A DNA stretch of 15,633 bases, taken from a virus. The notes beneath the pieces were generated by a model. That model did no database searches and was not told the DNA's origin. It saw only the letters and a program-made list of their open reading frames with translations. Positions within the stretch are counted from its first letter, which is position 1. Each line of letters starts with the position of its first letter. Below, piece by piece: positions 212-15,633 of the stretch. The stretch lies in the UHGV virus genome UHGV-2095518; one strand, 5' to 3'. The position numbers and the translations under genes were made by a program.

Positions 212-462
212 AGCCTCACCTCCGCACGGAACGGATGGCATAGTTATTATGTGTAGGCTTTCAGACACATCAATCAGAGCCTTAATTGATATATATGCTG
301 GAGACGATGCAATATAAAAAGCTCGCCGTAGCGAGCTAATATAATGTATTTCTCTGATATTATGTTTATTTGTATTAGCTCAGACTTGACATCACAGGTT
401 TCGTATATAGAACATCATCAAATCTGTCAGTTTGCTATGAATGAGATATAGTAATTGAAGAG

Positions 463-858
463 CTAACCTCGCATGTCAAAGCCAGATTTCTGAAAATCTC
501 TGTAGACTTCCGGATTGTTGAAGGCCGGAAATTTGGCTTTATGAGCTGCGGACTTTATCGCTTCGCAATAGGCTTTATCACCGTTACTGGTAGATATTTT
601 TAACGCCGTGCCATCCTGAGAGAATTCCATATGCAACCTGCATTTTTTCCCTTTCCAGTTATGCGGCTCATCAAGTTTGGCATTAATTGCAGCTCTGATT
701 CCCCGCGCTTGCGCCCCCCATTCATCCTGATCATCCCAGCGTCCTGAACTGCAACTACCTGTAGCAGTAGTTTTGTGGCAATCTGAAGGGTGTAAAGGTG
801 TGCATCCCGCAACAAAACCGACCCAAAAAGTCAACATAACGATTTTCTTTAATCCCAC
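463..858 (-). CDS. Lipoprotein with a divergent TolA domain III-like mature domain
   Basis: 131-aa ORF with a GTG start preceded by GAGGA. Signal peptide with lipobox VAGC (MGLKKIVMLTFWVGFVAGC). The mature part (IRAAINAKL...GKKCRLHMEFSQDGTALKISTSNGDKAYCEAIKSAAHKAKFPAF..PEVYRDFQ) follows the pattern of the E. coli TolA C-terminal domain, including the conserved Cys pair. Paralogous to the 1009..1437 gene. Confidence 0.6.
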   Translation of the reverse strand: MGLKKIVMLTFWVGFVAGCTPLHPSDCHKTTATGSCSSGRWDDQDEWGAQARGIRAAINAKLDEPHNWKGKKCRLHMEFSQDGTALKISTSNGDKAYCEAIKSAAHKAKFPAFNNPEVYRDFQKSGFDMRG

Positions 859-1008
859 TTCTTGCTCCTCAATCCATTAAAATCTCAGCAATAGTAGTTG
901 TTACGTCCGCCACTGGCTCAGAGCTGACTATCCGCTAAATTTAGCTCAGTGCCGTAGCTGTGTCAGAACAAACCTAAGCCGAAACCGTTTATTACAAAAC
1001 AATAAATA

Positions 1009-1437
1009 TCAGGGTTTAAAATCCAGCACCCCATTTTGAAATACTTTATATACTTCCGGCGAAGGGGGGGCAGGTATATCAGCATTCTTTATCGCATTCA
1101 TCGCTTCACGACATAAATCGAGGTCTCCACTTTCTCTTTTAACCTCCAGTAGAAGGCCATTCGGGGCCATATGCATTCTCAGTGTACACTCTTTTCCTGA
1201 ATACTTACTCGCATCCCCGAACTGTTTTTCGATGGCGCTCTTGATTTGATGGGCATACAGACGGATATCCTCACTAACATCAGAAGTACGTTCAGATGAA
1301 CTCACATACTGTGTCTCTATTGCTTTATCGGAGTAATATGATGTACGGTCATGATAATTTGTCGATACAGCATCAGTGCACCCGATAATAATCCCACTAA
1401 TAATCAACGTAAGAATTGATGCGCTACGAAAACCCAT
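1009..1437 (-). CDS. Lipoprotein carrying a TolA domain III-like C-terminal domain
   Basis: 142-aa ORF with ATG start and GAGGAAAA Shine-Dalgarno. Signal peptide with lipobox-like IIGC. The C-terminal ~85 aa (HQIKSAIEKQFGDASKYSGKECTLRMHMAPNGLLLEVKRESGDLDLCREAMNAIKNADIPAPPSPEVYKVFQNGVLDFKP) closely parallel the TolA C-terminus as I remember it (..GQIKSAIESKFYDASSYAGKTCTLRIKLAPDGMLLDIKPEGGDPALCQAALAAAKLAKIPKPPSQAVYEVFKNAPLDFKP). Confidence 0.7.
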   Translation of the reverse strand: MGFRSASILTLIISGIIIGCTDAVSTNYHDRTSYYSDKAIETQYVSSSERTSDVSEDIRLYAHQIKSAIEKQFGDASKYSGKECTLRMHMAPNGLLLEVKRESGDLDLCREAMNAIKNADIPAPPSPEVYKVFQNGVLDFKP

Positions 1438-1466
1438 TTTTCCTCACATATGTCATATAGTAAAGG

Positions 1467-1496
1467 ATTATATATACCGTTGTTTTGGACGCTCAA
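1467..1496 (-). promoter_or_regulatory. Candidate sigma70 promoter for the 1009..1437 lipoprotein gene
   Basis: On the minus strand TTGAGC (-35) is followed after ~16-18 nt by TATATAAT (-10), about 30-40 nt upstream of the start codon in an AT-rich intergenic region. Confidence 0.3.
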
Positions 1497-2025
1497 ACAG
1501 CGAATCAGATCAAATAAAACGCACATTTGTTAACATTTACACAAAGTCTGCGTGGGATATTCTGAAAGAATATCCATAATGTGGAGAGAATCTATTGAAG
1601 TGCATGGTGCCGGGTGCCTCCCGGTGAACAAAATGTTCGTGATACCTGTCGGCGACAGAAAAGGTTAATGGTATCACCCCACCGCACAGGGGGATTCACC
1701 ATGCAGGAGTTTTCTTAGCAAACTCACTGCGCGCCCGGCAACTCCCAACCACATAAAATGCGGAGTTTGTGGTATTTATGCATATAACTCGCAGGAATTA
1801 TCTTAAAAAACTGATGTCGATCCGGATTAAAAAGAAGCAGGTCATCATCAGATGACTGGAAAAAAGGAAAACAAAAAATACTCATCATACAGTTTTGATT
1901 GCAGGGATGAGCCTGCTATGCACAATATGCAGAATATAAGCAAGATAAAAATATGCAGGCATATTATTTCGGGTTTTGTTATTAACACAACCTTTTTAAT
2001 AATCATTTGGCATACAATAAACCAG

Positions 2026-2055
2026 CCCAAAAAGAACCGCCTAAACAGGCGGTTG
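2026..2055 (-). terminator. Rho-independent terminator-like hairpin
   Basis: Stem AACCGCC / GGCGGTT with a 6-nt loop; on the minus strand it is followed by CTTTTTGGG. Confidence 0.35.
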
Positions 2056-2371
2056 GTCAATACAAAGGATGCTTCGTCTTTATTATAGTAATCTGAGGCG
2101 TCGGGTGTCTTGTATCAGACAACATATTGTCCCGCTAAACAGCGAATTACAAACCACCCTGCAATGATCTCTCATCTCATTTTATATGAGTTGACGACAT
2201 CAGGATAACGCATCATCAGCCCCTGCCAAGAAATATCAAAACTCCCGCCAGCAATGTGTTATCACAATATTGTAAAAAAAACACAGCACCGAAACTATAA
2301 CTGGTCTCTGTTATAATTTGGAGCAGAAAGACCAGTTGCCCAACTAGCAGCATTCTCCCCTGCTTTCCTGA

Positions 2372-2400
2372 CGTAAAAAAACCGCATTAAGCGGTTTTTT
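2372..2400. terminator. Bidirectional rho-independent terminator (tR'-like) just downstream of the Q-like gene
   Basis: AAAAAAACCGC-ATTAA-GCGGTTTTTTT: a GC stem flanked by an A-run on one side and a T-run on the other, about 90 bp past the stop of the 2482..3024 gene. Confidence 0.6.
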
Positions 2401-2481
2401 TACGATGTCCATGTCTGCAATCCGCCTCGCGATACAGCTTTGCGAAGCATAGCAAAATTGAAGCAGTTTATACGTAAGAAA

Positions 2482-3024
2482 TCAAGCCATTTTCTCAGCA
2501 AATGATTCACGCATGGGAATATATAGGGCATACTCAGCAACAGCTAACCAATTAGCAATCCGTTTTTCGCATGTGCTAAAACACCACTCTGGGTGTGCAT
2601 CATTTAGCAATTCAGCCATTTTGCGCTTAGTCATCCCCCGCCCTTCATAGCGTTGCCGGAGAATGCAAATCAATCCTGGATGCTCTGCCAGCACCTCACT
2701 TATGACTCGATCAATACATAACGCCTCTGCATCAGTACAATGCGCCAGCCAGCTCTTTTGCTTGCCGTTGATCATCTCTCGCAAAAACGCTTCCAGCTCA
2801 GCTTTCTCTATTCCCGCTTTTTTCATTCTGCGCAGGGCTTCATTAATGGCTGTTTTCGTCAGTTTTTTGGATGCCAACAACTGATTGAACATATTCCCTG
2901 ACCTGCCACCGCCAATATACGACCAGCGCCCCCACATACGTAGTTTTCCCTGAATCCAGACACTTTCCAGCGTGGTGAGGCGAAGGTGTTCTCCGCTTTT
3001 TCCTGTATTCGTTGGGTAAATCAT
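2482..3024 (-). CDS. Putative late-gene antiterminator (Q-like)
   Basis: 180-aa ORF whose start overlaps the upstream gene stop by 4 nt. The N-terminal LRMWGRWSY motif resembles the RWGAW motif of small Q antiterminators such as DLP12 QuuD. It sits directly upstream of a strong terminator and, further on, a holin. Confidence 0.5.
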   Translation of the reverse strand: MIYPTNTGKSGEHLRLTTLESVWIQGKLRMWGRWSYIGGGRSGNMFNQLLASKKLTKTAINEALRRMKKAGIEKAELEAFLREMINGKQKSWLAHCTDAEALCIDRVISEVLAEHPGLICILRQRYEGRGMTKRKMAELLNDAHPEWCFSTCEKRIANWLAVAEYALYIPMRESFAEKMA

Positions 3025-3311
3025 AAATGACCTTTCTTTCTCCAGATTTCTTGTGTGCGAAAAACCCCTTCAGCATGCATCAGGCGCAATTCTTCTTTGG
3101 TGTAATCGCTGGTTTTTACCCGCCCGTCGATTAGATCGTGGCATGAGCTACAGGCTATCGCCGCCTGCATATCGTGTGGTTTTGTCGCTGTTCCGCACGT
3201 CCCCGCCAGCCTGTAATGCGCCAGCACAGAGGTTTCGGGATTGTGATTGCAGTAGCCAGGGATTCTGATCTGGCACATCTGGCCTTTAGCCGCTTTACGT
3301 AAATTCACCAT
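3021..3311 (-). CDS. YbcO-like (DUF1364) Cys-rich putative nuclease
   Basis: 96-aa protein MVNLRKAAKGQMCQIRIPGYCNHNPETSVLAHYRLAGTCGTATKPHDMQAAIACSSCHD... matches my recollection of E. coli DLP12 YbcO in length, Cys spacing and several motifs (LRKAA, CQ.RIPG.CN.NPETSVLAH.RL.G.CGT.TKP, IACS.CHD). Translationally coupled to both neighbours. Confidence 0.6.
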   Translation of the reverse strand: MVNLRKAAKGQMCQIRIPGYCNHNPETSVLAHYRLAGTCGTATKPHDMQAAIACSSCHDLIDGRVKTSDYTKEELRLMHAEGVFRTQEIWRKKGHL

Positions 3312-3910
3312 TACGCAAACTCCAGTAGTTGTGCGGCCACATTTTCAACTTCCTCCTGAGAGGAGAATTTACGGAACAGAATCCAGTTCCACAGCACATT
3401 CAGTACAGATTTATAAACCTGCTGAAACTCGACTTCGTCCATATTCGCAAAAGCGATGGATTTTGCCCGACGCCCACGGCTACCGTCCGGATAAATATGC
3501 TCGGTGTAAAATCCGGCCTGAATGGTTACCCACTCGCGGAAAGCCTCAAACGACTTTAGCAACGCCGTATCCCGGGTTCTACGAGTCGCAACGGTGTTAA
3601 GGTATTGCTCTGCGGCATCACTCAGGGCTGGCGTGTGTTCCCGACCAACTGATTCGCACAGGTAATCAACGAAACCAGACAGCAGTTCTCGTTCGCGAGG
3701 CGTGATCGCCCCACCGACCGGAGTCCAGTAATCGAATCCCAGTTGCAGGAGTTTGAAAAAACGCTTGTGGAATGCGTAGTTACGCACACGCTTAAAGTCT
3801 GCGTGTATCCACTCACCTATTTTGATTTGATGCAGAAAATCGCAACTCTCCGGCGTCGCCGGGAGAAGTAAACCAGAAGAAGTTTGTTTGACCAGTTGTA
3901 TATGCGCCAT
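3311..3910 (-). CDS. Lambdoid nin-region protein (DUF1367-like), function unknown
   Basis: 199-aa ORF lying immediately upstream of the YbcO-like and Q-like genes, overlapping the YbcO-like start by 1 nt. The call rests on position and size; the family assignment is from memory. Confidence 0.45.
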   Translation of the reverse strand: MAHIQLVKQTSSGLLLPATPESCDFLHQIKIGEWIHADFKRVRNYAFHKRFFKLLQLGFDYWTPVGGAITPRERELLSGFVDYLCESVGREHTPALSDAAEQYLNTVATRRTRDTALLKSFEAFREWVTIQAGFYTEHIYPDGSRGRRAKSIAFANMDEVEFQQVYKSVLNVLWNWILFRKFSSQEEVENVAAQLLEFA

Positions 3911-4361
3911 TTCTCAATCTCTCGATGGCGCAGTGCAGCAGATGCCAGTTGTTCAGGCTGACGTATAAAGTATAAATAAACTGGTTCCAGTGTAAAGCCC
4001 CCACCTTAATGGAATAAAAACCAAACAACAGATTGCTGGGATACAAACAACGCTTATTATTAAAAGCGGTTAAACAAATTAAATTTTAATGTTATGCAAA
4101 TTTGTCAGATCACCATAATATCTCATTTGAAAACCGCTGAAATAACAGCCCTATCAGGGTTAATCATATTAAGGTGAGTAAATATGGAAAACAACAAATC
4201 TGTACATTACGTTCCTTTTTTATCTGTAATACTTTTTGTTTTATGCTGTGCGTGGGCATTATTTTTATAAAAATATTTACAGATGAAGTAAACCCGCCAA
4301 TCAGGTTAACTGTGGCTGCGTTGAGGATGCATAATACATCAGAGGTTGCGGGGATTTCTCC

Positions 4362-5701
4362 CATAAGCGCTAACTTAAGGGTTGTGGTATTACGCCTGAT
4401 ATGATTTAACGTGCCGATGAATTACTCTCACGATAACTGGTCAGCAATTCTGGCCCATATTGGTAAGCCCGAAGAACTGGATACTTCGGCACGTAATGCC
4501 GGGGCTCTAACCCGCCGCCGCGAAATTCGTGATGCTGCAACTCTGCTACGTCTGGGGCTGGCTTACGGCCCCGGGGGGATGTCATTACGTGAAGTCACTG
4601 CATGGGCTCAGCTCCATGACGTTGCAACATTATCTGACGTGGCTCTCCTGAAGCGGCTGCGGAATGCCGCCGACTGGTTTGGCATACTTGCCGCACAAAC
4701 ACTTGCTGTACGCGCCGCAGTTACGGGTTGTACAAGCGGAAAGAGATTGCGTCTTGTCGATGGAACAGCAATCAGTGCGCCCGGGGGCGGCAGCGCTGAA
4801 TGGCGACTACATATGGGATATGATCCTCATACCTGTCAGTTCACTGATTTTGAGCTAACCGACAGCAGAGACGCTGAACGGCTGGACCGATTTGCGCAAA
4901 CGGCAGACGAGATACGCATTGCTGACCGGGGATTCGGTTCGCGTCCCGAATGTATCCGCTCACTTGCTTTTGGAGAAGCTGATTATATCGTCCGGGTTCA
5001 CTGGCGAGGATTGCGCTGGTTAACTGCAGAAGGAATGCGCTTTGACATGATGGGTTTTCTGCGCGGGCTGGATTGCGGTAAGAACGGTGAAACCACTGTA
5101 ATGATAGGCAATTCAGGTAATAAAAAAGCCGGAGCTCCCTTTCCGGCACGTCTCATTGCCGTATCACTTCCTCCCGAAAAAGCATTAATCAGTAAAACCC
5201 GACTGCTCAGCGAGAATCGTCGAAAAGGACGAGTAGTTCAGGCGGAAACGCTGGAAGCAGCGGGCCATGTGCTATTGCTAACATCATTACCGGAAGATGA
5301 ATATTCAGCAGAGCAAGTGGCTGATTGTTACCGTCTGCGATGGCAAATTGAACTGGCTTTTAAGCGGCTCAAAAGTTTGCTGCACCTGGATGCTTTGCGT
5401 GCAAAGGAACCTGAACTCGCGAAAGCGTGGATATTTGCTAATCTACTCGCCGCATTTTTAATTGACGACATAATCCAGCCATCGCTGGATTTCCCCCCCA
5501 GAAGTGCCGGATCCGAAAAGAAGAACTAACTCGTTGTGGAGAATAACAAAAATGGTCATCTGGAGCTTACAGGTGGCCATTCGTGGGACAGTATCCCTGA
5601 CAGCCTACAAAACGCAATTGAAGAACGCGAGGCATCGTCTTAACGAGGCACCGAGGCGTCGCATTCTTCAGATGGTTCAACCCTTAAGTTAGCGCTTATG
5701 G
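4362..5701 (+). mobile_element. IS186-like insertion sequence (IS4 family)
   Basis: Terminal inverted repeats CATAAGCGCTAACTTAAGGGTTG at 4362-4384 and its reverse complement ending at 5701 enclose a single transposase gene. The flanking 12 bp are also inverted-symmetric (GGGGATTTCTCC on the left, GGAGAGATCCCC on the right), so the exact ends are uncertain by about 12 bp. Confidence 0.8.
4417..5529 (+). CDS. insL: IS186 transposase
   Basis: The ORF translates MNYSHDNWSAILAHIGKPEELDTSARNAGALTRRREIRDAATLLRLGLAY..., recognised as the IS186 transposase. The ORF track opens at a GTG at 4411; the ATG at 4417 is the more likely start. Confidence 0.85.
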   Translation: MNYSHDNWSAILAHIGKPEELDTSARNAGALTRRREIRDAATLLRLGLAYGPGGMSLREVTAWAQLHDVATLSDVALLKRLRNAADWFGILAAQTLAVRAAVTGCTSGKRLRLVDGTAISAPGGGSAEWRLHMGYDPHTCQFTDFELTDSRDAERLDRFAQTADEIRIADRGFGSRPECIRSLAFGEADYIVRVHWRGLRWLTAEGMRFDMMGFLRGLDCGKNGETTVMIGNSGNKKAGAPFPARLIAVSLPPEKALISKTRLLSENRRKGRVVQAETLEAAGHVLLLTSLPEDEYSAEQVADCYRLRWQIELAFKRLKSLLHLDALRAKEPELAKAWIFANLLAAFLIDDIIQPSLDFPPRSAGSEKKN

Positions 5702-5758
5702 GAGAGATCCCCGCCACTCTTCGTGTGTCAGGTATCCTCAATGCACCCTTTCCTCTCC

Positions 5759-5784
5759 AAATAAAAAAGCTCCCGAAGGAGCTT
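5759..5784 (-). terminator. Rho-independent terminator ending the virion-gene operon
   Basis: AGCTCC-CGAA-GGAGCT hairpin; on the minus strand it is followed by TTTTTTATTTGG, about 20 bp past the stop of the 5805..6314 gene. Confidence 0.55.
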
Positions 5785-5804
5785 TAAAATACAAGGGATG
5801 ACTC

Positions 5805-6314
5805 TTAATCCCAATCAATCCAGTTGTAGACGATACGAAGTGACGGGCGCACAGCAGCAGTCACATCTTCGGTACTAAAGTCGATTGCATCACTGTAGAT
5901 TTTGCAGTCCAACATTTCAATTGTTGTAGCAGCTTTTGTCACAGCGTTAACCCCGGAAGATTTGGATTCAGGGGTAGCAGCCATCGTGATATCAACATAG
6001 TCTTTCTCTGCAATGCGATCCTTAATGAACTGAAGAATATCGCCTTCGATAGTCTCCACGCACTGGACCTGGATTTCCCCAGAGTTTCGAATTGGACCGT
6101 GCTGGTTGAACTTCACACCATTCGGACCATAGTCCTCCACATCCTCGCGGGTCATTTCAGGAATTTGCGATGTGCGAACCGGTACGCTGATATCTTCATG
6201 GCCTGCAAAAGTGAGCTGGAATTCAGAAGATACCAGTCGTTCGCCTTTGGCCGCGTTGGCAGTATAGCGGCCCTTAATAAATTTACGGTTTCCCTTAGTG
6301 TTATTGTGCCCCAT
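5805..6314 (-). CDS. Hypothetical virion protein, last gene of the structural operon (possible tail tube or tail-associated)
   Basis: 169-aa ORF with an AAAAGGA Shine-Dalgarno, 11 bp after the upstream gene, in an operon with a sheath-like gene. No family recognised by eye. Confidence 0.4.
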   Translation of the reverse strand: MGHNNTKGNRKFIKGRYTANAAKGERLVSSEFQLTFAGHEDISVPVRTSQIPEMTREDVEDYGPNGVKFNQHGPIRNSGEIQVQCVETIEGDILQFIKDRIAEKDYVDITMAATPESKSSGVNAVTKAATTIEMLDCKIYSDAIDFSTEDVTAAVRPSLRIVYNWIDWD

Positions 6315-6325
6315 ATAAAATCCTT

Positions 6326-6907
6326 TTACTGGAACGCCCGAACAATATCGGAGCTGTTATATATCGAAGAACCGGTCAACTGGAGGTTGACGGTGTTTTT
6401 CAGGAAATGCCCATTACTATCCCTGGGGGCATCGAGATCGAAACTAAGGTCCTGGATAGCGACATCAATGATGTTGATCCGGCGACCAATGTTTAGCGTC
6501 ACACGCTCCGGGATTCGACCACCAATACTAGCGTCTTTAAGTTCCGGGCTAATCATTGCTGACAACGCGGCGATAGCACCTGAAACTTCCGTATATGGGT
6601 TAAACAAAGCAATGAAAGTTACTGGCAGCGTGAAAGTCGGCGGTGTCCCCCCTTCCCAAACCATTAAGCTGTTCCAACGGGCAACTGACGTTGTTTCAGT
6701 ACCAACCTGCGCAAAACCACTGAAGGCACCAGCAACAGAACCCATAGACATACCGGTAAACGGCGCTTCCCAATTCTGGGCCAGATTCATTGCCGCCCCC
6801 TGGCTGATATATCCGGTAACCTGGTACTGAGAGTTCGTTAAAGTAACTTTCAGAAATGGCGATACACCGTCAGCCTGGCTGTAAACCCCAAAAGGTATAG
6901 GTGCCAT
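6326..6907 (-). CDS. Hypothetical virion protein (size fits a tail tube protein)
   Basis: 193-aa ORF in the same operon, Gly/Ser/Thr-rich. The function is inferred only from context. Confidence 0.4.
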   Translation of the reverse strand: MAPIPFGVYSQADGVSPFLKVTLTNSQYQVTGYISQGAAMNLAQNWEAPFTGMSMGSVAGAFSGFAQVGTETTSVARWNSLMVWEGGTPPTFTLPVTFIALFNPYTEVSGAIAALSAMISPELKDASIGGRIPERVTLNIGRRINIIDVAIQDLSFDLDAPRDSNGHFLKNTVNLQLTGSSIYNSSDIVRAFQ

Positions 6908-6942
6908 TCAAGTTAAAGGCCGGAGTTCTCCGGCATCCTCCT

Positions 6943-7758
6943 TTAGCCGAGGCGCTTACGGCGCAGTTTCATTGACTTTTTGCGGGCCAGTTTTGCCGCG
7001 CCGGTCTGGGCTTTACGACGCGCTTTTTTCAGCGCCGATTTTTGAGCCGCAGTCAGACGTTTTTTACGCAGACGTTTACGGATGAGCTTGATCTCACCGT
7101 TACGAACAACCTTCTTAAATGCTTCAGTCAGCATTTCATCAGAAGTGCCAGCAACAACAAACGCCGCTTCCAGTTCGTCGCGGTCGTCGCTATCCAAACC
7201 AGCGATAGCGGAACCAACATCAGCAGCTGCGTCGTCGTCTTCATCGTCGGTCAATGCTTCGATCAGGTCATCATCTACACCGCATGCTGCGAGGAAGTCA
7301 GCAACATTTGCCCATGCTTCGTTATAGGCATCGTCCTGTTCTTCTGTAACTTCGGTATCGTCGTCGTCAGAGATACCAGCGATAGCCTGAACGAAACCAT
7401 CAAGGGAGTCGAAAGTCAGATCACCGCTATCAGCCCAGGCGAAAACGGCATCGGCCGCATTACTCAACGCATTCTGCATAGCACTTCGATTTGCAGCTTC
7501 CAGAATCATCTTGTGCGCCTGTTCGACGGTCCATTCTTTACCTTCTTTTCCTTCCAGGATTTGCTCAGGTGCCGGGTCAGATTGAACGTTCTCGTTAATC
7601 TGTGCCGCCGGTTCCGGATTATTATTAATCACCGGTTCGGTTGGCGGTTGGGCACTTACACGGGCAGATTCCATCAACTGCACCGGATCAGCGTTCAAAG
7701 CGAAACGGGACAGTCCATTCCCCAAAAATGCCCCGGATTGAAAAAAGTTTTTGCTCAT
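6943..7758 (-). CDS. Acidic protein with a poly-basic C-terminal tail, function unknown
   Basis: 271-aa ORF with an AAGGGA Shine-Dalgarno, starting 10 bp after the sheath-like gene. The centre is extremely D/E-rich (..SDDDDTEVTEEQDD.., ..TDDEDDDAAAD.., ..DSDDRDELE..) and the last ~50 aa are K/R-rich (KLIRKRLRKKRLTAAQKSALKKARRKAQTGAAKLARKKSMKLRRKRLG). Confidence 0.5.
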   Translation of the reverse strand: MSKNFFQSGAFLGNGLSRFALNADPVQLMESARVSAQPPTEPVINNNPEPAAQINENVQSDPAPEQILEGKEGKEWTVEQAHKMILEAANRSAMQNALSNAADAVFAWADSGDLTFDSLDGFVQAIAGISDDDDTEVTEEQDDAYNEAWANVADFLAACGVDDDLIEALTDDEDDDAAADVGSAIAGLDSDDRDELEAAFVVAGTSDEMLTEAFKKVVRNGEIKLIRKRLRKKRLTAAQKSALKKARRKAQTGAAKLARKKSMKLRRKRLG

Positions 7759-7767
7759 TGTATTCCC

Positions 7768-9357
7768 TTACTTAATAAGCAGCGGTACGCCATGGATACG
7801 ACGGGCTACGCCAGTCGGGCAGCAGGCCCAGACTACTTCCCATTTATCGAATTCCGCCTGCGTAACTTTCAGCACATACGGTTCTGTACCGTCAGCATCA
7901 GGATCACGAGGAGCCACCAGAGCGCCGGAGGCGACAAAGCGATCTAAAAGTTTGGTCATCCCTTTAGTCAGGCCAGCCGCAGTAATACCGTCCGGGCTAT
8001 GCTTCATCTGTCGGGCTAACTGGACAAAGAAACGGCTGATTGCATTCATCAGGGATGGGACGTGCTGGAAGTGCAGATAGTTATCCTGCGTGCAGCAAGT
8101 TAAAGCATCGTCGATGATCATCTGGCCAGAGGTGCCAACAGATACTTTATTGAGACGGCCCTTGACCATTGCTTCTTCGTCCGGGGTATCTTCCGGATAC
8201 AGCGGTTGAATTGACGCACGAGCAATGACGGCACGTTCTTCACCAGCCGGTGAGTAATGCCAACCGCCGACATCAGAGTTTTTCTTGACGCCACGAGCTT
8301 TCGCCGCATACGCCGCGCCAGACAGACCGAAGACCACACGGGATTGGGTCCATTTGTCTTTGCAGGAGAACGGGAAGTGATAGACAGCACAGCTTACATA
8401 ATCGGTACCAAGTAAACCGGTATCTTCAACAGCAGAGATCGCTTCCGTGTACGTCAATGTCGGTTTGACATCAAAGAAGCCATCAATCAGGCGATCTGCA
8501 CAGATTTTACCTAATGCGGTGATAGCCGCATTGTCATAGCAGCCCAAGCCAAGAACAGCGGTGTACATGTACGGCGCATTGTTCAGCACTTTCACCGCAC
8601 GCAGGTACGCAGCGGTTGAGATTTTCGACTGATCACCGTTGGTACCACCAGTGAACGCCAACGATTTTTTGTTTGTTACTTTCGCTGTAGAAATCAGATC
8701 TTCATTAACAACCGCGCGCAGATATTTAGAACGGGCTTCCAGAGCCGTAGGCAGATAACACAAGCGGCCCATGTCATCTTTCGCTTCTTCCACCAAAGAC
8801 ACAGTGTGTGTCTCCAGGGTCGTTACCACACCGAGCGAAGTCGTCTGGGTTAGTTTTAAGAGGAAGCGTTCATTACCCGCGCTGTCCGCTGTTGCCGTTT
8901 CGATGGTTAACTCACGGGTAGGTGAAATACACGGATCACCATCATCAACGTAGATAGCAAAGGCTTCGCCGCTATCAAGTTCAATTTCAGAACCATATGG
9001 CAACGCAGTGTAAGCCGGTTCGCCTGATTCATCGAACATAATAATCGGGAACTTCGCATCATCCGGAACAGCACGGACAACATAACCAGACGTTTGCTGA
9101 ATAGCTTCGTACACATGGCGAATTGGTTCGAACTGTGAGCCGGAAGACGGCTTCAGCGGTTCGCCGAGAACATCTTCGTAATTGGACTCAGTAACCGCAA
9201 GAACAGTAAACGGCTTGCCACGCGCAAATACGCCAATACCAGCCCACAAGCTGCTATTTAATGCAACACCGGTAGATAACGTCGCATCGGCATTGATCGG
9301 GCTAACCGCGACGCCGGATGCATTACCTAATGACTGTTGAATTGAATATTGAGACAT
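7768..9357 (-). CDS. Contractile-tail sheath protein (putative)
   Basis: 529-aa ORF with an AGGGAAAG Shine-Dalgarno. It contains a GGWHYSPAGEERA segment resembling the W.SPAG..RG motif I recall from T4 gp18 and P2 FI, and has a sheath-like C-terminal region; the size and operon context also fit. Confidence 0.55.
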   Translation of the reverse strand: MSQYSIQQSLGNASGVAVSPINADATLSTGVALNSSLWAGIGVFARGKPFTVLAVTESNYEDVLGEPLKPSSGSQFEPIRHVYEAIQQTSGYVVRAVPDDAKFPIIMFDESGEPAYTALPYGSEIELDSGEAFAIYVDDGDPCISPTRELTIETATADSAGNERFLLKLTQTTSLGVVTTLETHTVSLVEEAKDDMGRLCYLPTALEARSKYLRAVVNEDLISTAKVTNKKSLAFTGGTNGDQSKISTAAYLRAVKVLNNAPYMYTAVLGLGCYDNAAITALGKICADRLIDGFFDVKPTLTYTEAISAVEDTGLLGTDYVSCAVYHFPFSCKDKWTQSRVVFGLSGAAYAAKARGVKKNSDVGGWHYSPAGEERAVIARASIQPLYPEDTPDEEAMVKGRLNKVSVGTSGQMIIDDALTCCTQDNYLHFQHVPSLMNAISRFFVQLARQMKHSPDGITAAGLTKGMTKLLDRFVASGALVAPRDPDADGTEPYVLKVTQAEFDKWEVVWACCPTGVARRIHGVPLLIK

Positions 9358-9417
9358 AACTTTCCCTGTTATGCGCCCCGCACGGGGGCGCTATGTTAAA
9401 CGGAGAACTTCCCCTGA

Positions 9418-10125
9418 TTACTCAGAGTCACCGGCATCAATCGTGTCGCCGCTTATAAAGTTAAGCCCGCCTTTTTTGGCCATTGTCAGCGTTACACGAG
9501 TGAAGTAATCAGCGCCGTTGCGTGGGTGCATATCGTTGATAGCCGAACCCCACAGTGTGGTACGGTTGACCAGCGCCGGAGTGGTCGGATGCTGGAACGG
9601 GATAGCCGGGACAGCATCACCAGTCACGAAGCCTGCTTTACCCGGATTTTCATCACGGACGTAGCACAGCACATCCATCGAGCTGAACTGAATGTTCTCT
9701 GTCGTTAAGTTCTTACAAATACCAGCAGGTACTTCGTACACTTTTACGTTACCGAACAGGGTACCGATGTAGTGAACATACGGAGTCTGGATATAGTCTT
9801 CGGCTGGCTGGAAGAAATCCTTCGGCAACTGTTTGAAGAAAGATGCTGCATCAGCACCAGCAAACATCCCCATCGCACCAGAAGATTTAACGCGCTCAAT
9901 AATGTCGCGATATACAGTCTGGAATTTTCCACGAATGATGGTTGCCCATACATCAAAGGACTGGTTAACCGGCAGAGCGATGTCAAAGGTGTCGGTCGCA
10001 AGAGTGCGCCAGATCATGATGCGAAGACGCAGCATATCCTGTTCATGAGACAGGTATTCCTTCAGGGTGCGGAACTGTAGGGAACCCAGGTCCAGACCAA
10101 ATTCACGCTGTGCTTCATACGCCGC
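9418..10125 (-). CDS. C-terminal part of a capsid-like ORF, in frame with and immediately downstream of the TAG at 10126-10128
   Basis: The reading frame stays open from the TAG through AAYEAQREFGLDLGSLQFRTLKEYLSHEQDMLRLR... to the stop at 9418. The first ATG (10033-10035) has no convincing Shine-Dalgarno, so this looks like a continuation of the upstream frame rather than an independent gene. Confidence 0.45.
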   Translation of the reverse strand, partial: AAYEAQREFGLDLGSLQFRTLKEYLSHEQDMLRLRIMIWRTLATDTFDIALPVNQSFDVWATIIRGKFQTVYRDIIERVKSSGAMGMFAGADAASFFKQLPKDFFQPAEDYIQTPYVHYIGTLFGNVKVYEVPAGICKNLTTENIQFSSMDVLCYVRDENPGKAGFVTGDAVPAIPFQHPTTPALVNRTTLWGSAINDMHPRNGADYFTRVTLTMAKKGGLNFISGDTIDAGDSE

Positions 10126-11124
10126 CTATACCGTGTGCTCAGCCGCGATAACGAACTGACTTGGGAACAGGGTGTATTTCTTCATTTCGTGGTTGATCAG
10201 CGGGATCAGCTCAGGAGCGGCTTCAATATTGATTTCCGTCTCAATTGCGATCTCAGTGCCTTTATCCGGCGCTTTGGAGAACGACAGGGCAATCTGACCA
10301 ATGTTGTAGTTCAGAGAGCAGGTAACAGTGATTTGCTCACCAGCAGCATTAGTAAACGAGTGAAGTAGGCTGCCGGAACCGTTATCAACAACAGACTTAA
10401 TACGGTTAACGTAGATGTTAGTGCGACCTTTTCGGATTGGTACATTCTGGCCTTCGAAGTCTTCCATCTTGAAGGTTGCGGTTTTGCTGGTGCCATCGGA
10501 GCTTGCCACCAGCACATAGCGGCGGCGTAACTGGCTGTACACACCGACGGATTGCATGTCCAGAACATCACCAGCAGCATAAGAACCAAAAGAGGAACCT
10601 GCCACGTTAAAGACTTCATAGATGTCGGACTGGTCACGCGTAACCGGAATGAAGGTACACGCATCAGCGGTAGCTGCCCCCAACTGAACAGGCAGGATCA
10701 TCGCGAGGAATAAAGGCAGACGCATAACACCGTCAGAAACGCTCATCATCTCTGCTGCGACGGATTCCAGCATCGCTTTATTAGTGGCATCCATGCTATT
10801 GCGGGTGGACTCAATCAGGCAGTTTTCCAGCGTCTGGTGGCAGGAGGCCAGAATTTCCGGACGCGGCATAGATTTATGTGCTGCGGCGTAGTCAGCCAGT
10901 GCACTTGCCCACGCGGTAGCAATTTGAGCGGTGGCATTATCAGAGATACCCGCAAAAATTGGGTCTTTACGTGCAGCTTCAAGGATAGATGCGGCACGCG
11001 CGGCATCATCTTTGATGAATTGGTTATCAGTACCGAACTGTGCTGTACTTGCCCAGCCAAGAACGGCTTTAGAGCGTTTTGCGATATCTGCAATACGATT
11101 CTGGTATTCGCGTAAGTTACTCAA
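10126..11124 (-). CDS. N-terminal part of a putative major capsid protein precursor (about 568 aa if the TAG at 10126-10128 is read through)
   Basis: Probable TTG start at 11122-11124, 6 nt after AAGGAAG; the ORF track opens at an upstream TTG at 11145. The frame ends in TAG after ...AAEHTV. It is the first gene of the virion operon, immediately downstream of parB/parS, which is where I recall P1 placing its major head gene; the combined size of about 62 kDa also fits. Confidence 0.45.
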   Translation of the reverse strand: MSNLREYQNRIADIAKRSKAVLGWASTAQFGTDNQFIKDDAARAASILEAARKDPIFAGISDNATAQIATAWASALADYAAAHKSMPRPEILASCHQTLENCLIESTRNSMDATNKAMLESVAAEMMSVSDGVMRLPLFLAMILPVQLGAATADACTFIPVTRDQSDIYEVFNVAGSSFGSYAAGDVLDMQSVGVYSQLRRRYVLVASSDGTSKTATFKMEDFEGQNVPIRKGRTNIYVNRIKSVVDNGSGSLLHSFTNAAGEQITVTCSLNYNIGQIALSFSKAPDKGTEIAIETEINIEAAPELIPLINHEMKKYTLFPSQFVIAAEHTV

Positions 11125-11145
11125 GTTACTCTTCCTTAAACACAA

Positions 11146-11388
11146 GGCACTTGTGTGAATCCCTTTTCGGAAGAGATTTTATTGAAAGTCACTTGTTGAC
11201 TTTCTCGCGAAAAGTAATTTTTTAAATTTTTTGTGCGGGGAAGTGGACGGTGAATGCAGGCGTTAAATTGTGGGAATTTCAGTCTGAAACCCCCCTAAAA
11301 AACACATGCAAATCACAAGGTTAGCAATGAAATCGGTGCGGGACATTTTAGGAAGGGGAGGGGCTAACACCACCTCCCACCAGCGGGA
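11146..11388. promoter_or_regulatory. parS-like partition site region, probably also carrying the promoter of the virion operon
   Basis: Intergenic segment directly downstream of parB, the position of parS in P1-family plasmids. It contains an 8-5-8 palindrome GAAAGTCA-CTTGT-TGACTTTC (11184-11204), a TGAAATCGGTG motif (11327-11337) resembling the P1 box A/box B arrangement, TGAAT/ATTCA heptamer-like repeats and an AT-rich tract. Confidence 0.45.
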
Positions 11389-12354
11389 TTATTCCCCAGC
11401 AGACATTTTCCCAATGATTTTTTTTATTGCTTCGTCAATTTCAGTTTGCACTTCAGACGGGAGTCTGGAGAACTCGTAGGCGACAACCCGTTTTTTCGGA
11501 TCGGACTTCTTTCGAGCATATTGGCGACGGTCAGAGAAGTCTCGCAGCTTCTCAACCACCACAGATTTAACCGGCGCGGGCTTCAGGCTTTTGCTTTCCG
11601 CTTTGAAGATAGCCAGTATCTTCGCTTTATCCTCTTTCGCGCCCTCAGTCTCTGCAATTCGCTCGCGCACCGTATCAACCAGATCTCCAATCGGTACGTT
11701 TTTGGCGTTAGCATCTTCGGAGATCTGGAGCAGCAACTGGTAATCAGGCAGGGCGAGATCGCTGGCAACAGGGAAGACAGCAATCATCTCATCCGGCACC
11801 GCCGCAGCCTGGAAAGCTCGCGTCACTTTAGCCTTTGAGATGTTCTCAGCTCGGGCGATCTCTTCTTTGGTCATATTCTTGCCGTACATAACCTCGAAGC
11901 GTTTACCCAGCTCGCGCAGAGTGTGTTCGCGGGCTGTCTGGATATCAATGGCCAGCTGGCGGGCATCCGCCAGGCTGATCTCATCTTTCGTCACCAGAAT
12001 CTCAAATTTCGTTTCATTGAAGATACACGCAGCGCGGCGACGTGATCCGTCCAATACCTCAATGCGCTCCCCAACCATACGACCGATAGCCGGGAAGAAC
12101 TGTTGCAATTTAATGGTGCGGGAAATATCGCTTACCGACTCAGGGGTGAGCAGAGACTGATCGCGGCCGTTAACTGCCGGGTCAACGAACGTGCGCGACT
12201 CAATCTCACCACTCAGCACAACGGTAAGCAAAAATTTAGCCTGGCGACCAGATTTTAGGGTAAAGGTTTTGGTGCCTTCACTGCCTTCAAGCATGCGAGC
12301 AAACTCGGAGCTATTCTTGCCCAGCACTCGTCCACGGGAAACTATTTTTTTCAT
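11389..12354 (-). CDS. parB: ParB centromere-binding partition protein (type Ia)
   Basis: 321-aa ORF with the ParB GSRRRAA motif (LDGSRRRAACIF) and an HTH region, translationally coupled to parA (4-nt overlap). The overall pattern is P1/P7 ParB-like but clearly divergent from the P1 ParB I recall. Confidence 0.85.
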   Translation of the reverse strand: MKKIVSRGRVLGKNSSEFARMLEGSEGTKTFTLKSGRQAKFLLTVVLSGEIESRTFVDPAVNGRDQSLLTPESVSDISRTIKLQQFFPAIGRMVGERIEVLDGSRRRAACIFNETKFEILVTKDEISLADARQLAIDIQTAREHTLRELGKRFEVMYGKNMTKEEIARAENISKAKVTRAFQAAAVPDEMIAVFPVASDLALPDYQLLLQISEDANAKNVPIGDLVDTVRERIAETEGAKEDKAKILAIFKAESKSLKPAPVKSVVVEKLRDFSDRRQYARKKSDPKKRVVAYEFSRLPSEVQTEIDEAIKKIIGKMSAGE

Positions 12355-13562
12355 GCCGCCTCACCCCTAACAAACTCAATTCGATCAAACACAGCCTTAG
12401 TGAAACGCTCGGCCTCGGTTCGTGCCTTCTTCAGCGCCTCTGCACTGCCTGGATACGATTGCGGGTTGGCACTGATTACGGTGTCGAAAGACTCGCCGCA
12501 TCGCTCAAAGCCATCCAGACGAGGCAGAGAAGAGTCCAGAATGTTGCTGGCGTAAACCTCACGCGCAAGGCTGTGTGATGTCTCGTGATCGCGCTTGCCG
12601 GTCATCTTCGACATAAAACCAATGCTGGCGCTCAAACGCGGTTCTACGCCTTCCTCCTCCAGTTGCTCCAGCATTTCTGGCAGACGGGTGAGATATTTCA
12701 GTGTTGAGTGGAAGTCAACCTGGGCTGGTGGGGTAGGGGTAAGCAGCAAATCGCTGGCCGCCAGACCGTTGAGCAGGAACGGATCCAGGTGTGGACCGGT
12801 ATCAATAAAGATAAAGTCATAATCATCCGCAACACGATCAATGATATTGCGTCGAAGGATTTCGTACTGATTTTGTCCGGGAAGATGCTCTTCAACCAGC
12901 TCTTTCCATTGGCTGGCAACAAAGCCATCGTCGATAGAGGCTGGAATCACGTCTACGCCAGGAACGATGGTCGGACGAATCACCTCTTTGCGTAGCGTCT
13001 CCGCGTCCAGGTCGTTCAGCATCGCCTGCGCGGCGGTTTCCAGGATGGAACCAATACTGTGAGTATGGTCGAGGAACATTGTGCTGGATGCCTGAGGGTC
13101 AAGGTCAATTACCAGAATGCGCAGATCGTGACGCAGTAAATCCTGATGCACACGCAGAGCGTGCGCCAACGTTACTGTGGAAACCGTTTTGGATACGCCA
13201 CCCTTCAGGTTTACGACAAAAATAACGTAAGGCGATTTGTGAATGTCGCGATATTTGGGGATCTTACGGTGGGCATAGATATCAATGACGTTCTGGATGG
13301 TCAGCGCGTACTGTTCAACGTTACCGACCTGTTTCTTGTTGAACTGGTACCCATCATCTTCCATCTCTTTGATGGCCTGCTCCACAATGCGGCGGCTCAG
13401 CTTCGGCAACTTTGCCACAGCGTTACGAGTGAACGTCTGATAATACTCGGTCTGATTGAACTCTTTACGCTGATCTTCAATATCCTGACTCATGGCCTTA
13501 AGTAATGCGCTTGCACGAAGAGCTATGGTGCCGACACCGCCGTAATCGCGTTTCATCATCAT
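12351..13562 (-). CDS. parA: ParA partition ATPase (type Ia, with N-terminal DNA-binding extension)
   Basis: 403-aa ORF with the deviant Walker A motif NLKGGVSKTVSTV and a conserved C-terminal region (RLDGFERCGESFDTVISANP..AVFDRIEF) as in P1 ParA. The ~100-aa N-terminal extension is typical of autoregulatory type Ia ParA. Confidence 0.9.
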   Translation of the reverse strand: MMMKRDYGGVGTIALRASALLKAMSQDIEDQRKEFNQTEYYQTFTRNAVAKLPKLSRRIVEQAIKEMEDDGYQFNKKQVGNVEQYALTIQNVIDIYAHRKIPKYRDIHKSPYVIFVVNLKGGVSKTVSTVTLAHALRVHQDLLRHDLRILVIDLDPQASSTMFLDHTHSIGSILETAAQAMLNDLDAETLRKEVIRPTIVPGVDVIPASIDDGFVASQWKELVEEHLPGQNQYEILRRNIIDRVADDYDFIFIDTGPHLDPFLLNGLAASDLLLTPTPPAQVDFHSTLKYLTRLPEMLEQLEEEGVEPRLSASIGFMSKMTGKRDHETSHSLAREVYASNILDSSLPRLDGFERCGESFDTVISANPQSYPGSAEALKKARTEAERFTKAVFDRIEFVRGEAA

Positions 13563-13665
13563 CTCCTTATCATTTAGTATGAGTGAATTGTACGTTTGAT
13601 TCTGCTACGTGCAACTTTTTTTGATTCGTGCGCCAATTATTGCACGTAAAGAAATGGCGATGAGG
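13563..13665 (-). promoter_or_regulatory. parAB promoter/operator region
   Basis: Immediately upstream of parA: a large inverted repeat CTACGTGCAA (13604-13613) ... TTGCACGTAA (13639-13648) around an AT-rich centre, as expected for the ParA autoregulatory operator. Confidence 0.5.
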
Positions 13666-13950
13666 TTATTAGATGTGTGCTGGAGGGATGATGCAGGACC
13701 AGAATGTGCGATAGAGGGAAGTCGCATTGAATTATGTGCTGTGGAGGGATCGCTGGTATCAAATATGTGTGCTGGAGGGAAAGATAGAAGATTAGATGTG
13801 CGCTGGAGGGAAACTTGGATGGTTAGATGTGTGCTGGAGGGAATGTCTGGGCAAACTGCGTGGCGCAACCCTCCAGCGCACACCAAAAACAGGAAAATGG
13901 GCAGGCATTCCCGGCAGCGCACATTTTTCAAATGCAGCTGCCCTCCAGCA
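13666..13950. repeat. incA iteron array (about nine 19-bp RepA-binding repeats in both orientations)
   Basis: Repeats of GATGTGTGCTGGAGGGA and variants at about 13666, 13698, 13726, 13758, 13789 and 13820 in one orientation, and CCCTCCAGCGCACAC-type copies at about 13861, 13900 and 13935 in the other, directly downstream of repA. This is the P1 incA copy-control arrangement. Confidence 0.85.
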
Positions 13951-13955
13951 CACAC

Positions 13956-14816
13956 TTATTCGGGAAGTTTCAGCTTTGGATTGCGAGAATGGACGATTAC
14001 AAAACTTTCCCGGCCTTTCTTCTCAATTGAACAGTCGAGATAGCCGATTGTTTTAAGCTGTTCTATCGCTTTCTTAATGATACGGTTTTGCTCGCCAACA
14101 GCTGACTGCAAAGCCAGGCGCTCACGGATTCGCGCGAACGATAGCGGCAACGGGTTCTGCGGAAGGCTTTCGATGAAAGTGTAAATGGCTTGTGCAGCTT
14201 CTTTCTTCGGAAGGGCACGCAAGGCGTGGTGTTGCAACAGAACGCGATAATCAAGCTGGAACAGCTCCCACAGCTTCGAATCAGCCTCCAGTTCTATCAG
14301 ATCAAGGTCAGCATCAAAACGCCCGACCTTCAGCAGACCAGTCTGATAGCCGCCTTTAGCATCTTTTCCGCGCTTAAAAGCGATACCCTTGTTACGCAAG
14401 CGTCCAAGTGATTCATGAATGGTTAAACGCAGTTTCGCATCCAGACGTTTTGAGGGGAAACCACAGGCTTTAGCGAATTCCTGAAACGATAACTGGATGG
14501 TGTTTGAGGACAAGCCGTATTTGCTGAACGCGTAGATGACACCGATCCACGTTTTGAAATCAGTATCCATATCGAGTCGAGGACCGGTGATTTTAATATC
14601 ATCGTAACCCTCGGCTTTAGCTATCTCCAGCTGGGAAAACGCTTTGGTGGCATCAATCTCTTTACTTTCTCCTTTGCTCTTTGATGGCTTCGGCACGAAT
14701 ACCCCCAAACGCATCAACGCTACAGGCTGCACAGTGTTGTTTGAATTAACTGTTAGTTCTTTTGCCTTACTTTCAATGTCTGCGTAAAGAATATCGGATA
14801 TAAAAGATTGATTCAT
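13956..14816 (-). CDS. repA: Plasmid replication initiator RepA (P1 type)
   Basis: 286-aa ORF (MNQSFISDILYADIESKAKELTVNSNNTVQPVALMRLGVF...) flanked upstream by five and downstream by nine copies of the same 19-bp iteron, the defining organisation of the P1 R replicon. The protein matches my recollection of P1 RepA. Confidence 0.9.
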   Translation of the reverse strand: MNQSFISDILYADIESKAKELTVNSNNTVQPVALMRLGVFVPKPSKSKGESKEIDATKAFSQLEIAKAEGYDDIKITGPRLDMDTDFKTWIGVIYAFSKYGLSSNTIQLSFQEFAKACGFPSKRLDAKLRLTIHESLGRLRNKGIAFKRGKDAKGGYQTGLLKVGRFDADLDLIELEADSKLWELFQLDYRVLLQHHALRALPKKEAAQAIYTFIESLPQNPLPLSFARIRERLALQSAVGEQNRIIKKAIEQLKTIGYLDCSIEKKGRESFVIVHSRNPKLKLPE

Positions 14817-14871
14817 ATTGCTTTTTCCGAATTATGTGGATAGTTTTTATCAGTGATGATAACTACCCTGG

Positions 14872-14977
14872 CTTTCCCGTCAGCACACATCCTATATCCC
14901 GCCAGCACACATTAGCAACCCGTCAGCACACATTTTTTTCCCTCCAGCGCACATCGTTTTCCCTCCAGCACACATCG
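14872..14977. repeat. incC iterons (five 19-bp repeats) within oriR, overlapping the repA promoter
   Basis: Five direct copies of ..CC(C/G)(T/C)CAGC(A/G)CACAT.. at about 14872, 14897, 14918, 14938 and 14959, immediately upstream of the repA start. Confidence 0.85.
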
Positions 14978-14989
14978 CGAAAGGCTTCT

Positions 14990-15100
14990 AAGCCAGACGG
15001 GACGCGGCCTACGACGATCAGGGATCTATATGGATCTAATTGGGATCTGTATGGACCTGATTATTGGATCTATCCAGTGGATAATGTGGATAAGTGAAAA
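14990..15100. promoter_or_regulatory. oriR core: GATC-containing heptamer repeats and tandem DnaA boxes
   Basis: Five GATC sites (15016, 15023, 15033, 15044, 15067) within repeated GGATCT motifs, followed by DnaA boxes AGTGGATAA (15076-15084) and TGTGGATAA (15085-15093). A further DnaA-box-like TGTGGATAG lies at 14835-14843 on the repA side. Confidence 0.7.
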
Positions 15101-15121
15101 AACCGGCCAACGTAGCCGGTT
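15093..15121 (-). terminator. Rho-independent terminator shielding oriR from incoming minus-strand transcription
   Basis: AACCGGC-CAACGTA-GCCGGTT hairpin; on the minus strand it is followed by TTTTCAC. Confidence 0.4.
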
Positions 15122-15135
15122 GGAAGGGAGTCGTA

Positions 15136-15214
15136 TTATTCTACGCTTTCGATGAGAAGACCATGTTCATAGCATTTAAGCTCATCGCCCTCGTACAGGA
15201 ATTGGTATCCAATT
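15136..15214 (-). pseudogene. 3' remnant of a gene truncated by the IS3-family insertion
   Basis: The minus-strand frame reads ...[25 protein letters not shown] then TAA (15136-15138), followed by the terminator hairpin. The frame is cut off at 15214/15215 where the IS end begins. Confidence 0.3.
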
Positions 15215-15633
15215 GAAGTGGTTTACTGAATTTGGCCACCTGAACAGAGGTGATATGCTCACCTCAGAACAACACAGGAGTCATAATGAAAAAAGAAATT
15301 TCAGCGCAGAGTTTAAACGCGAATCCGCTCAACTGGTCGTTGACCAGAACTACACCGTGGCAGATGCAGCCAGCGCTATGGATGTCGGCCTTTCCACAAT
15401 GACGCGATGGGTGAAACAATTACGTGATGAACGGCAGGGCAAAACACCAAAAGCCTCCCCCATTACCCCGGAACAAATTGAAATCCGTGAGCTCAGGAAA
15501 AAGCTACAACGTATTGAAATGGAAAATGAAATATTAAAAAAGGCTACTGTAGATTCAATTGGTCAACGCAACAGTTATGTGAAAACATGGGGTTGCGGAG
15601 GTTTTTTGAATGAGACGAACATTTACAGCAGAG
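15215..15633 (+). mobile_element. IS3-family element (IS911-like), left end only; continues beyond the window
   Basis: A TG-initiated terminal sequence TGAAGTGGTTTACTGAATTTGGCCACC.. is followed about 70 bp later by an orfA with an IS911-type N-terminus. Confidence 0.6.
15285..15633 (+). CDS. IS3-family transposase OrfA (IS911-like), open to the window end
   Basis: Translation from ATG 15285 gives [88 protein letters not shown]..., recognised as IS911 OrfA-like. An A6G slippery heptamer A-AAA-AAG lies at 15536-15542. Confidence 0.7.

Follow-up and report, generated by a model that had tools for sequence, protein, structure and literature searches.

An amber codon in the major capsid gene of a phage-plasmid that has decayed into a plasmid

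Does a stop codon inside the major capsid gene of a P1-like element mark a phage that makes its head in an unusual way, or a gene left behind without a phage to serve? The question is raised by a stretch of viral DNA of 15,633 nucleotides (UHGV-2095518; hereafter the window), in which an in-frame TAG interrupts gene 23. A first-pass annotation made from the letters alone had proposed a nonsense mutation and named several possible causes: a defective or domesticated phage-plasmid, a laboratory allele, expression dependent on a suppressor, or a sequencing error. The gene, its break and its promoter lie in the window as follows.

9418..11124, minus strand: gene 23, the major head gene of P1 and P7, present as a pseudogene that starts at TTG, spans 568 codons and a stop, and is broken at codon 333
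10126..10128, minus strand: amber codon TAG, codon 333; a C-to-T transition from CAG (Gln), the codon of P1, P7 and plasmid p2 of the soil strain T2 (T2 p2)
11176..11194, minus strand: predicted Lpa-dependent late promoter LP23, intact; the 19-mer AAGTGACTTTCAATAAAAT is the LP23 annotated in P1 and P7

A single minus-strand frame of 569 codons runs from the TTG at 11124 to the TAA at 9420..9418, and the TAG at 10128..10126 is its sole break. The list of open reading frames splits the gene in two (10126..11145 and 9418..10035). The first-pass annotation had taken these as one frame divided only by the TAG and encoding a putative major capsid protein of about 568 amino acids; re-reading the frame bears this out, as the 568 codons align end to end with P1 Gp23 and the gene is gene 23 of P1 and P7. 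The 30 codons 3′ of the TAG encode AAYEAQREFGLDLGSLQFRTLKEYLSHEQD, which agrees with the earlier reading of this segment as ordinary protein, and the next ATG comes only at 10035. The TTG start retains an intact, well-spaced Shine-Dalgarno sequence (AAGGAAG) just upstream. The earlier statement that no ribosome-binding site precedes the internal ATG is essentially right: an AGGA is present there, but it lies only 1 nt upstream and is therefore too near to serve as one. PGAP, the NCBI/RefSeq pipeline, calls the identical gene 23 sequence a pseudogene with an "internal stop".

At the nucleotide level the gene 23 region is 99.5% identical to P7 and 98.6% to P1. In both P7 (AF503408) and P1 (AF234172) gene 23 is a continuous coding sequence of 1707 nt between parB/parS and the sheath gene 22. 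Alignment to the P1-family head proteins of P1, P7 and RCS47 likewise gave continuous homologues with CAG at codon 333, in keeping with a nonsense mutation in a single capsid gene. Seven nucleotide differences separate the gene from that of P7, namely the TAG and six synonymous changes; from P1 it differs at 21 nucleotides, and among the 20 besides the TAG one alters an amino acid (I56V). Once glutamine is restored at codon 333, homology to gp23 is full-length: 567 of 568 residues (1-568) are identical to P1 Gp23 (PDB 9ukm chain A), with I56V as the sole substitution. The position and signals of the locus (parB-parS-LP23-23-22-21) are conserved, and an uninterrupted HK97-like reading frame is absent. 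Gene 23 here is a pseudogene of the gp23 family and not a functional member of it.

The gp23 protein has an HK97-like fold, loses its N-terminal 124 residues by cleavage during maturation, and stabilises capsomers through contacts of its N-terminal part and I-domain (PMC12810830). If gene 23 of the window is transcribed, translation would stop past residue 332. Since the first 124 residues are removed, such a product would consist of the cleaved scaffold-like segment and only 208 of the 444 mature residues, and it cannot form an HK97-type shell. The locus resembles that of P1 Gp23 (PDB 9ukm, 9vl4; gene 23 of P1, 'upf57.5' of P7) in being the same gene, of the same length, in the same position. 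It differs in the TAG at codon 333, which limits the product to residues 1-332, and in that the capsid partners Prt, Pro, DarA/Hdf and PacAB are missing from the plasmids that carry the TAG. In a single-sequence AlphaFold model the C-terminal 235 residues (334-568) have a mean pLDDT of 40, too low for the P-domain or A-domain to be placed in this lost part; the text of the structural study names the domains without residue limits. Pfam holds no family for gp23, gp22 or gp21.

The surroundings of gene 23 consist of a short run of P1-type late genes on one side and a P7-type maintenance module on the other:

4359..5703, plus strand: IS421 copy at the end of the phage relic, with hybrid flanks (left TTTC, right GAGA)
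5805..6314, minus strand: bplB, one of the last P1 genes before the backbone ends
6326..6907, minus strand: pmgG, likewise one of the last P1 genes before the backbone ends
6943..7758, minus strand: gene 21 (tail tube or baseplate), open reading frame intact, relic block
7768..9357, minus strand: gene 22 (tail sheath), open reading frame intact, relic block
11389..12354, minus strand: parB, P7-type IncY maintenance module
12351..13562, minus strand: parA, P7-type IncY maintenance module
13956..14816, minus strand: repA, P7-type IncY maintenance module
15213..15633, no strand: IS-remnant junction on the upstream side of repA, at which alignment with canonical P1-like genomes ends

The IncY module (11389..14816, minus strand) is a replication and partition module of the P1/P7 type, with parS and the incA iterons in its intergenic regions, and the carriers are IncY by PLSDB typing. 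Alignment with ordinary P1-like plasmids ends at 15213, whereas that with AR_0114, pBK28009, T2 p2 and D9 continues through 15633; the junction is common to the plasmids with the TAG and to gutted sisters with the wild-type allele. The window holds 5 of 68 P1 core genes. The first-pass annotation had placed gene 23 in the head-gene position of an operon. The conserved order parB-parS-LP23-23-22-21 upholds the position, but the gene sits in a relic of about 6 kb, outside any working head operon. The rest of the phage is probably missing from the window's own source genome as well, since relatives are 100% identical over 4359-15633 and IS junctions flank the relic on both sides.

We examined five complete plasmids with the TAG and part of a sixth, scoring their gene content by gene-by-gene blastn coverage against the 68 P1 core genes, with RCS47 as the reference carrying P1 gene names.

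pH271-1: 93 kb; chicken meat, Vietnam; 3 of 68 P1 core genes
SWHEFF_68 plasmid: 41 kb; wastewater effluent, Hong Kong; 3 of 68
pM159-1.1: 88 kb; pangolin, China; 3 of 68
ET300 plasmid: 93 kb; frog, China; only the bplB..23 block left
pWP8-S18-ESBL-06_2: 72 kb; Klebsiella, Tokyo; 5 of 68
AR_0114 plasmid: 18-kb part examined; 5 of 68

Urine from the USA is a further source of carriers, and Tokyo wastewater is also among the sources. All five complete carriers are IncY with P7-type rep/par genes, and what they retain of the phage is 23-22-21 with or without pmgG and bplB. None of the carriers examined has a portal, prohead protease, terminase, tail fibre, baseplate (beyond the relic block), lysis, c1, lpa or lytic replication gene, and the Klebsiella plasmid has no phage genes outside the relic. 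A complete set of P1-like virion, packaging, lysis and immunity genes (prt, pro, pacAB, tail/baseplate, lyz/lyd, c1, lpa) was not found. An annotated 'terminase' of the ET300 plasmid was considered as a surviving packaging gene and rejected; it is an N-terminally truncated, divergent PacB-like fragment with 54% amino acid identity. The window and nine carrier loci contain no tRNA genes.

The rest of the carriers is made up of IS26, IS1, IS5 and IS110 copies, class 1 integrons and resistance genes (sul1/2/3, tet(A), mph(A), TEM-1, aac(3)-IId, floR, mer, ars), together with phsABC, toxin-antitoxin pairs and pieces of other replicons. Ten more independent contexts from the assembly collection follow one pattern: IS remnants, then repA-parA-parB-23N-23C-22-21-pmgG-bplB, then hokD, an IS or cargo; several of them are cut down further. 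Later damage is seen in the carriers, with an IS26 in gene 22 of AR_0114 and internal truncation of pmgG in others, and the contexts L025, L029 and L026 have lost either genes 22/21 or the larger part of the 3′ half of gene 23. With 3-5 of 68 P1 core genes in the carriers, the defective or domesticated phage-plasmid named among the possible causes is what the data support.

The TAG allele is widespread. A 61-mer centred on the TAG, matched exactly so that the counts are lower bounds, occurs in at least 22 of 731 E. coli complete genome records and at least 20 of 717 PLSDB plasmids. Among the matches listed, about 97% of some 720 homologues are exactly one base away from this 61-mer and are taken as CAG from the mismatch count. 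At least 12 PLSDB plasmids and at least 17 complete E. coli genomes match the 1951-nt stretch around gene 23 at 100% identity. The two open reading frames encode products of 332 aa and 205 aa, each of which is found unchanged on at least 1000 contigs among NCBI, ENA and Logan assemblies, and the 332-aa product is indexed in 1455 blocks of the assembly collection. An assembly from 2013 (GCA_000493035.1) has the TAG already. Exact matches come from E. coli, 'Shigella flexneri', Klebsiella sp., a Citrobacter freundii complex strain and Enterobacter hormaechei, from sources that include poultry, pigs, frogs, a pangolin, wastewater and patients. Because some database names read 'Typhi', the IncY plasmid of XDR Salmonella Typhi was a candidate carrier; no plasmid from Salmonella is found among the 20 PLSDB records that match exactly. 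None of the 23 phage matches carries the TAG allele; the best of them, P7, is 99.5% identical and has CAG. Over 4446 nt (the parB-23 spacer and genes 23, 22 and 21) six TAG carriers are 100% identical, and AR_0114 differs by one mismatch and the IS26 in gene 22. On this near-complete identity the TAG carriers are one clone. We found no paper on the amber allele or on the phage relic of the named carrier plasmids.

The order in which phage and reading frame were lost can be read from T2 p2, the closest relative with the CAG allele. It differs from the TAG clone at 10 sites over the 4446 nt, compared with 84-98 sites for P1, P7 and RCS47. T2 p2 has an intact gene 23 of 568 codons, yet it holds only 5 of 68 P1 core genes and has the same IS-remnant junction upstream of repA. 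As a plasmid with an unbroken gene 23 is equally gutted and shares this junction, we infer that loss of the phage genome preceded the TAG mutation.

The substitutions accumulated since the split from T2 p2 look neutral, as relaxed selection predicts. In the three relic genes the TAG clone differs from T2 p2 by 2 synonymous, 5 non-synonymous and 1 nonsense change (pN/pS 0.77), against a pN/pS of 0.11-0.12 in comparisons with P7, P1 and RCS47. The contrast gives a Fisher's exact p of about 0.01, with only 8 changes behind the relaxed-selection test. At codons 98 and 173 the window agrees with P1 and P7 and T2 p2 differs, so that the derived non-synonymous changes at these codons belong to T2 p2, which suggests that both branches have been drifting. 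The intact genes 22 and 21 and the intact late promoter are compatible with a recent origin and by themselves do not prove neutrality.

We consider it very probable that the change from CAG to TAG at codon 333 was a neutral, inactivating mutation in an orphaned major-capsid gene. Another reading is that the stub has been put to a new use: the Lpa of a superinfecting P1-like phage would fire LP23, and truncated gp23 (with its scaffold-like domain, N-arm and part of the shell protein), sheath and tube would poison assembly in a decoy-type exclusion. LP23 and the Shine-Dalgarno sequence with the TTG start are intact, the frames of genes 22 and 21 remain unbroken, the TAG clone has had great success (at least 1000 contigs), and a fragment with N-terminal and I-domain capsomer contacts (PMC12810830) could in principle disturb assembly. 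If true, such a trap would shield the plasmid's host to some extent and help account for the wide spread of the clone. The substitutions in the relic nevertheless have the neutral-looking pN/pS of 0.77, further destruction has been tolerated (IS26 in gene 22, truncation of pmgG, the losses in L025, L029 and L026), and resistance cargo with fusion to conjugative plasmids explains the success of the clone more simply; we regard this reading as very improbable. Slightly more improbable still is a functional amber allele, in which a viable phage would make its capsid by read-through or with a suppressor tRNA. The change from CAG to TAG is perfectly correctable by a glutamine-inserting suppressor, as a tRNA-Gln of the supE type would put back exactly the wild-type residue, and gene 23 carries no other damaging change. 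Against this, tRNA genes are absent from the window and the nine carrier loci, the allele is found in 0 of 23 phage records, and the carriers examined have no portal, protease, terminase, tail, lysis or regulatory genes, leaving a restored capsid protein nothing to assemble with. The first-pass suggestion of suppressor-dependent expression, which calls for both a tRNA and partner phage genes, thus finds no support in the carriers.

The two remaining suggestions, a sequencing error and a laboratory allele, fail on the distribution of the TAG. A single-base difference is of the type that a sequencing or assembly error at 10126-10128 could make, and we found no evidence of one; many laboratories have recovered the same allele, from many hosts and countries, in 22 complete E. 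coli records and 20 PLSDB plasmids, so that it stands identically in more than 40 independent complete assemblies, and its exact products occur on at least 1000 contigs, which leaves an artefact a negligible chance. Classical P1 genetics made use of amber mutants in morphogenetic genes, and an amber allele of P1 gene 23 might have been carried on a vector or in an engineered strain. The carriers, however, come from the field and the clinic (chicken meat in Vietnam, a pangolin and frogs in China, wastewater in Hong Kong and Tokyo, urine in the USA), they have P7-type par genes on a P7-like backbone and a large natural resistance cargo, and their gene 23 is 21 nucleotides away from that of laboratory P1. 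We give an origin in the laboratory as vanishingly little credence as an artefact.

Under the preferred reading of a neutral loss in an orphaned gene, a P7-like phage-plasmid would first have lost most of its virion, lysis and regulatory genes through IS-mediated deletion and replacement. Left over would have been the IncY replication and partition module with the adjoining late-operon stub 23-22-21-pmgG-bplB, on which selection would have relaxed once there was no phage left to build. The amber mutation would then have arisen in one lineage, which would have expanded clonally and come to serve multidrug-resistance plasmids as their backbone. This lineage would have moved by vertical inheritance and with the help of conjugative plasmids (IncN, IncX3, IncR) that it fused with or that mobilised it, and not by packaging. 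This mode of spread is suggested by replicon and relaxase typing: pBK28009 is IncN+IncY and conjugative, with MOBF and MOBC relaxases, pCREC-TJ2-NDM is IncX3+IncY and conjugative, and the Klebsiella plasmid is IncR+IncY and typed as mobilisable. The ET300 plasmid has mobC, a coupling protein (T4CP) and virB9-11.

P1-like phage-plasmids are known to shed phage genes, acquire oriT/relaxase and resistance genes, and turn into plasmids (PMC10879196). The TAG carriers resemble these elements in having kept a P1-type IncY replicon, lost phage functions, and gained resistance and conjugation or mobilisation. They differ from the set analysed there, whose members had to have 75% or more of the conserved P1 gene families, in holding 3-5 of 68 core genes, and they fit the class of that study that 'only have a few homologs'. 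The study does not discuss the amber allele, and the string 'pseudogen' has 0 occurrences in it. The late-gene block is also found in RCS47 (FO818745) and JL22 (ON018986), at a nucleotide identity of about 98%, and resistance genes are present in them too; unlike the relic, they retain all of the virion, lysis and immunity genes, and their gene 23 is unbroken. The pseudogenes of defective prophages are similar in their nonsense mutations after loss of function, neutral-looking substitutions and pipeline flags, and differ in nothing of substance other than that the replicon here is a plasmid and not a chromosome.

Gene 23 is a pseudogene, very probably a neutral one, and the phage-plasmid around it has turned into an ordinary plasmid, an element of a kind already described; an existing pipeline already flags the gene. 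As a textbook pseudogene in a known class of decayed phage-plasmid it carries little biological weight. One IncY resistance backbone, very widespread and present in E. coli, Shigella, Klebsiella, Citrobacter and Enterobacter, can be recognised cleanly by a single nucleotide, the C-to-T change at codon 333; this backbone is often fused to IncN, IncX3 or IncR replicons with NDM and other resistance genes. Together with its gutted CAG sister the TAG clone offers a small, well-resolved order of decay, in which large IS-mediated deletions come before point pseudogenisation of the stranded genes. The relic can also be expected to give false positives in tools that call 'P1-like phage-plasmids' by IncY typing or by matches to capsid, sheath or tube genes.

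The window as a whole has no record in public complete genomes or plasmids, and its left part has another origin. Positions 1-4358 are a chromosomal Qin-like lambdoid prophage segment that encodes two proteins with a TolA C-terminal domain, a DUF1133 Q-like protein, YbcO and DUF1367. At this prophage site in an E. coli chromosome IS421 has TTTC on both sides, and in the Klebsiella plasmid it has GAGA on both sides, each a target-site duplication. The copy in the window has TTTC on the left and GAGA on the right and is therefore a hybrid of the chromosomal and plasmid copies. It reflects either integration of the relic plasmid into the chromosome by homologous recombination at IS421, or a join made by the assembler across the repeat.

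The copy of IS421 in the window has a different target-site duplication at each end, with TTTC to its left and GAGA to its right. The left sequence is the flank seen at the chromosomal Qin-like prophage site, whereas the right one is the flank found in the IncY plasmid. The window is therefore either the product of chromosome–plasmid recombination at IS421 or a chimera created during assembly; the whole window was not found in any one public complete record. The features concerned are as follows.

1-4358: late-region segment of a lambdoid (Qin-like) prophage, 100% identical to E. coli chromosomes
463-858 and 1009-1437: two small proteins of the Qin-like segment, each carrying a TolA C-terminal domain
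4359-5703: IS421 copy, with flanks at 4355-4358 and 5704-5707
15213-15633: junction upstream of repA, where the canonical P1-like alignment ends and IS remnants start

The prophage segment also encodes a DUF1133 Q-like antiterminator, YbcO and DUF1367.

The bplB–hokD junction was compared in L003, the Klebsiella plasmid L004 and the ET300 plasmid L015. Where a carrier lacks IS421, the P1 backbone stops ∼116 nt past bplB, and its end is directly abutted by hokD or relBE-hokD of the Qin-prophage type. At the boundary between bplB and hokD lies a GC-rich palindrome, GGCGGGGA GAGA TCCCCGCC, which houses IS421. Some full-size P1-like plasmids (CX21 and its relatives) have IS421 at the identical site, with 97.7% identity, a hint that the hairpin may be a preferred target of this element.

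At the other end of the relic, the IS remnants upstream of repA consist of a partial transposase and IS30. This junction is common to the TAG clone, the plasmids with an amber codon in the major head gene 23, and to T2 p2 and D9, gutted plasmids whose gene 23 allele is wild-type. The junction is therefore the mark of an ancestor that had already decayed.

The late operon appears to be a mosaic. Over window positions 6943-11124, gene 23 shows only 7 differences from P7 in its 1707 nt. Genes 22 and 21 differ from P7 at ∼38 and ∼21 sites and are no closer to P7 than to P1, a pattern suggestive of earlier recombination in the operon.

The TAG-bearing IncY relic is joined to an IncN replicon in pBK28009, to an IncX3 replicon in the NDM plasmid pCREC-TJ2-NDM and to an IncR replicon in the Klebsiella plasmid. 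These fusions would explain the occurrence of the relic in several genera despite the lack of a capsid. Database records of the exact truncation products of gene 23 (332 and 205 aa) include some labelled Salmonella enterica serovar Typhi, yet there are no Salmonella plasmids among the exact-match PLSDB records for the TAG allele. The labels may reflect true carriage in Typhi or mislabelled assemblies.

The ET300 plasmid contains one further fragment, adjoined by a partial 3'-5' exonuclease gene.

L015 37830-38903: gene annotated 'terminase', an N-terminally truncated PacB-like fragment

The fragment is only 54% identical to PacB of RCS47, an intact P1-like phage. It is left over from another P1-like element, more distantly related, on the same plasmid. 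An even smaller piece of the relic was seen in a Logan contig (L025, SRR24401746): partial parB, the 332-codon fragment of gene 23 and 83 codons of the downstream half, followed by IS26. This piece looks to be located in E. coli chromosomal DNA; its neighbours are the ribosomal-protein paralogues ykgM/ykgO, an invasin-like gene and lutABC.
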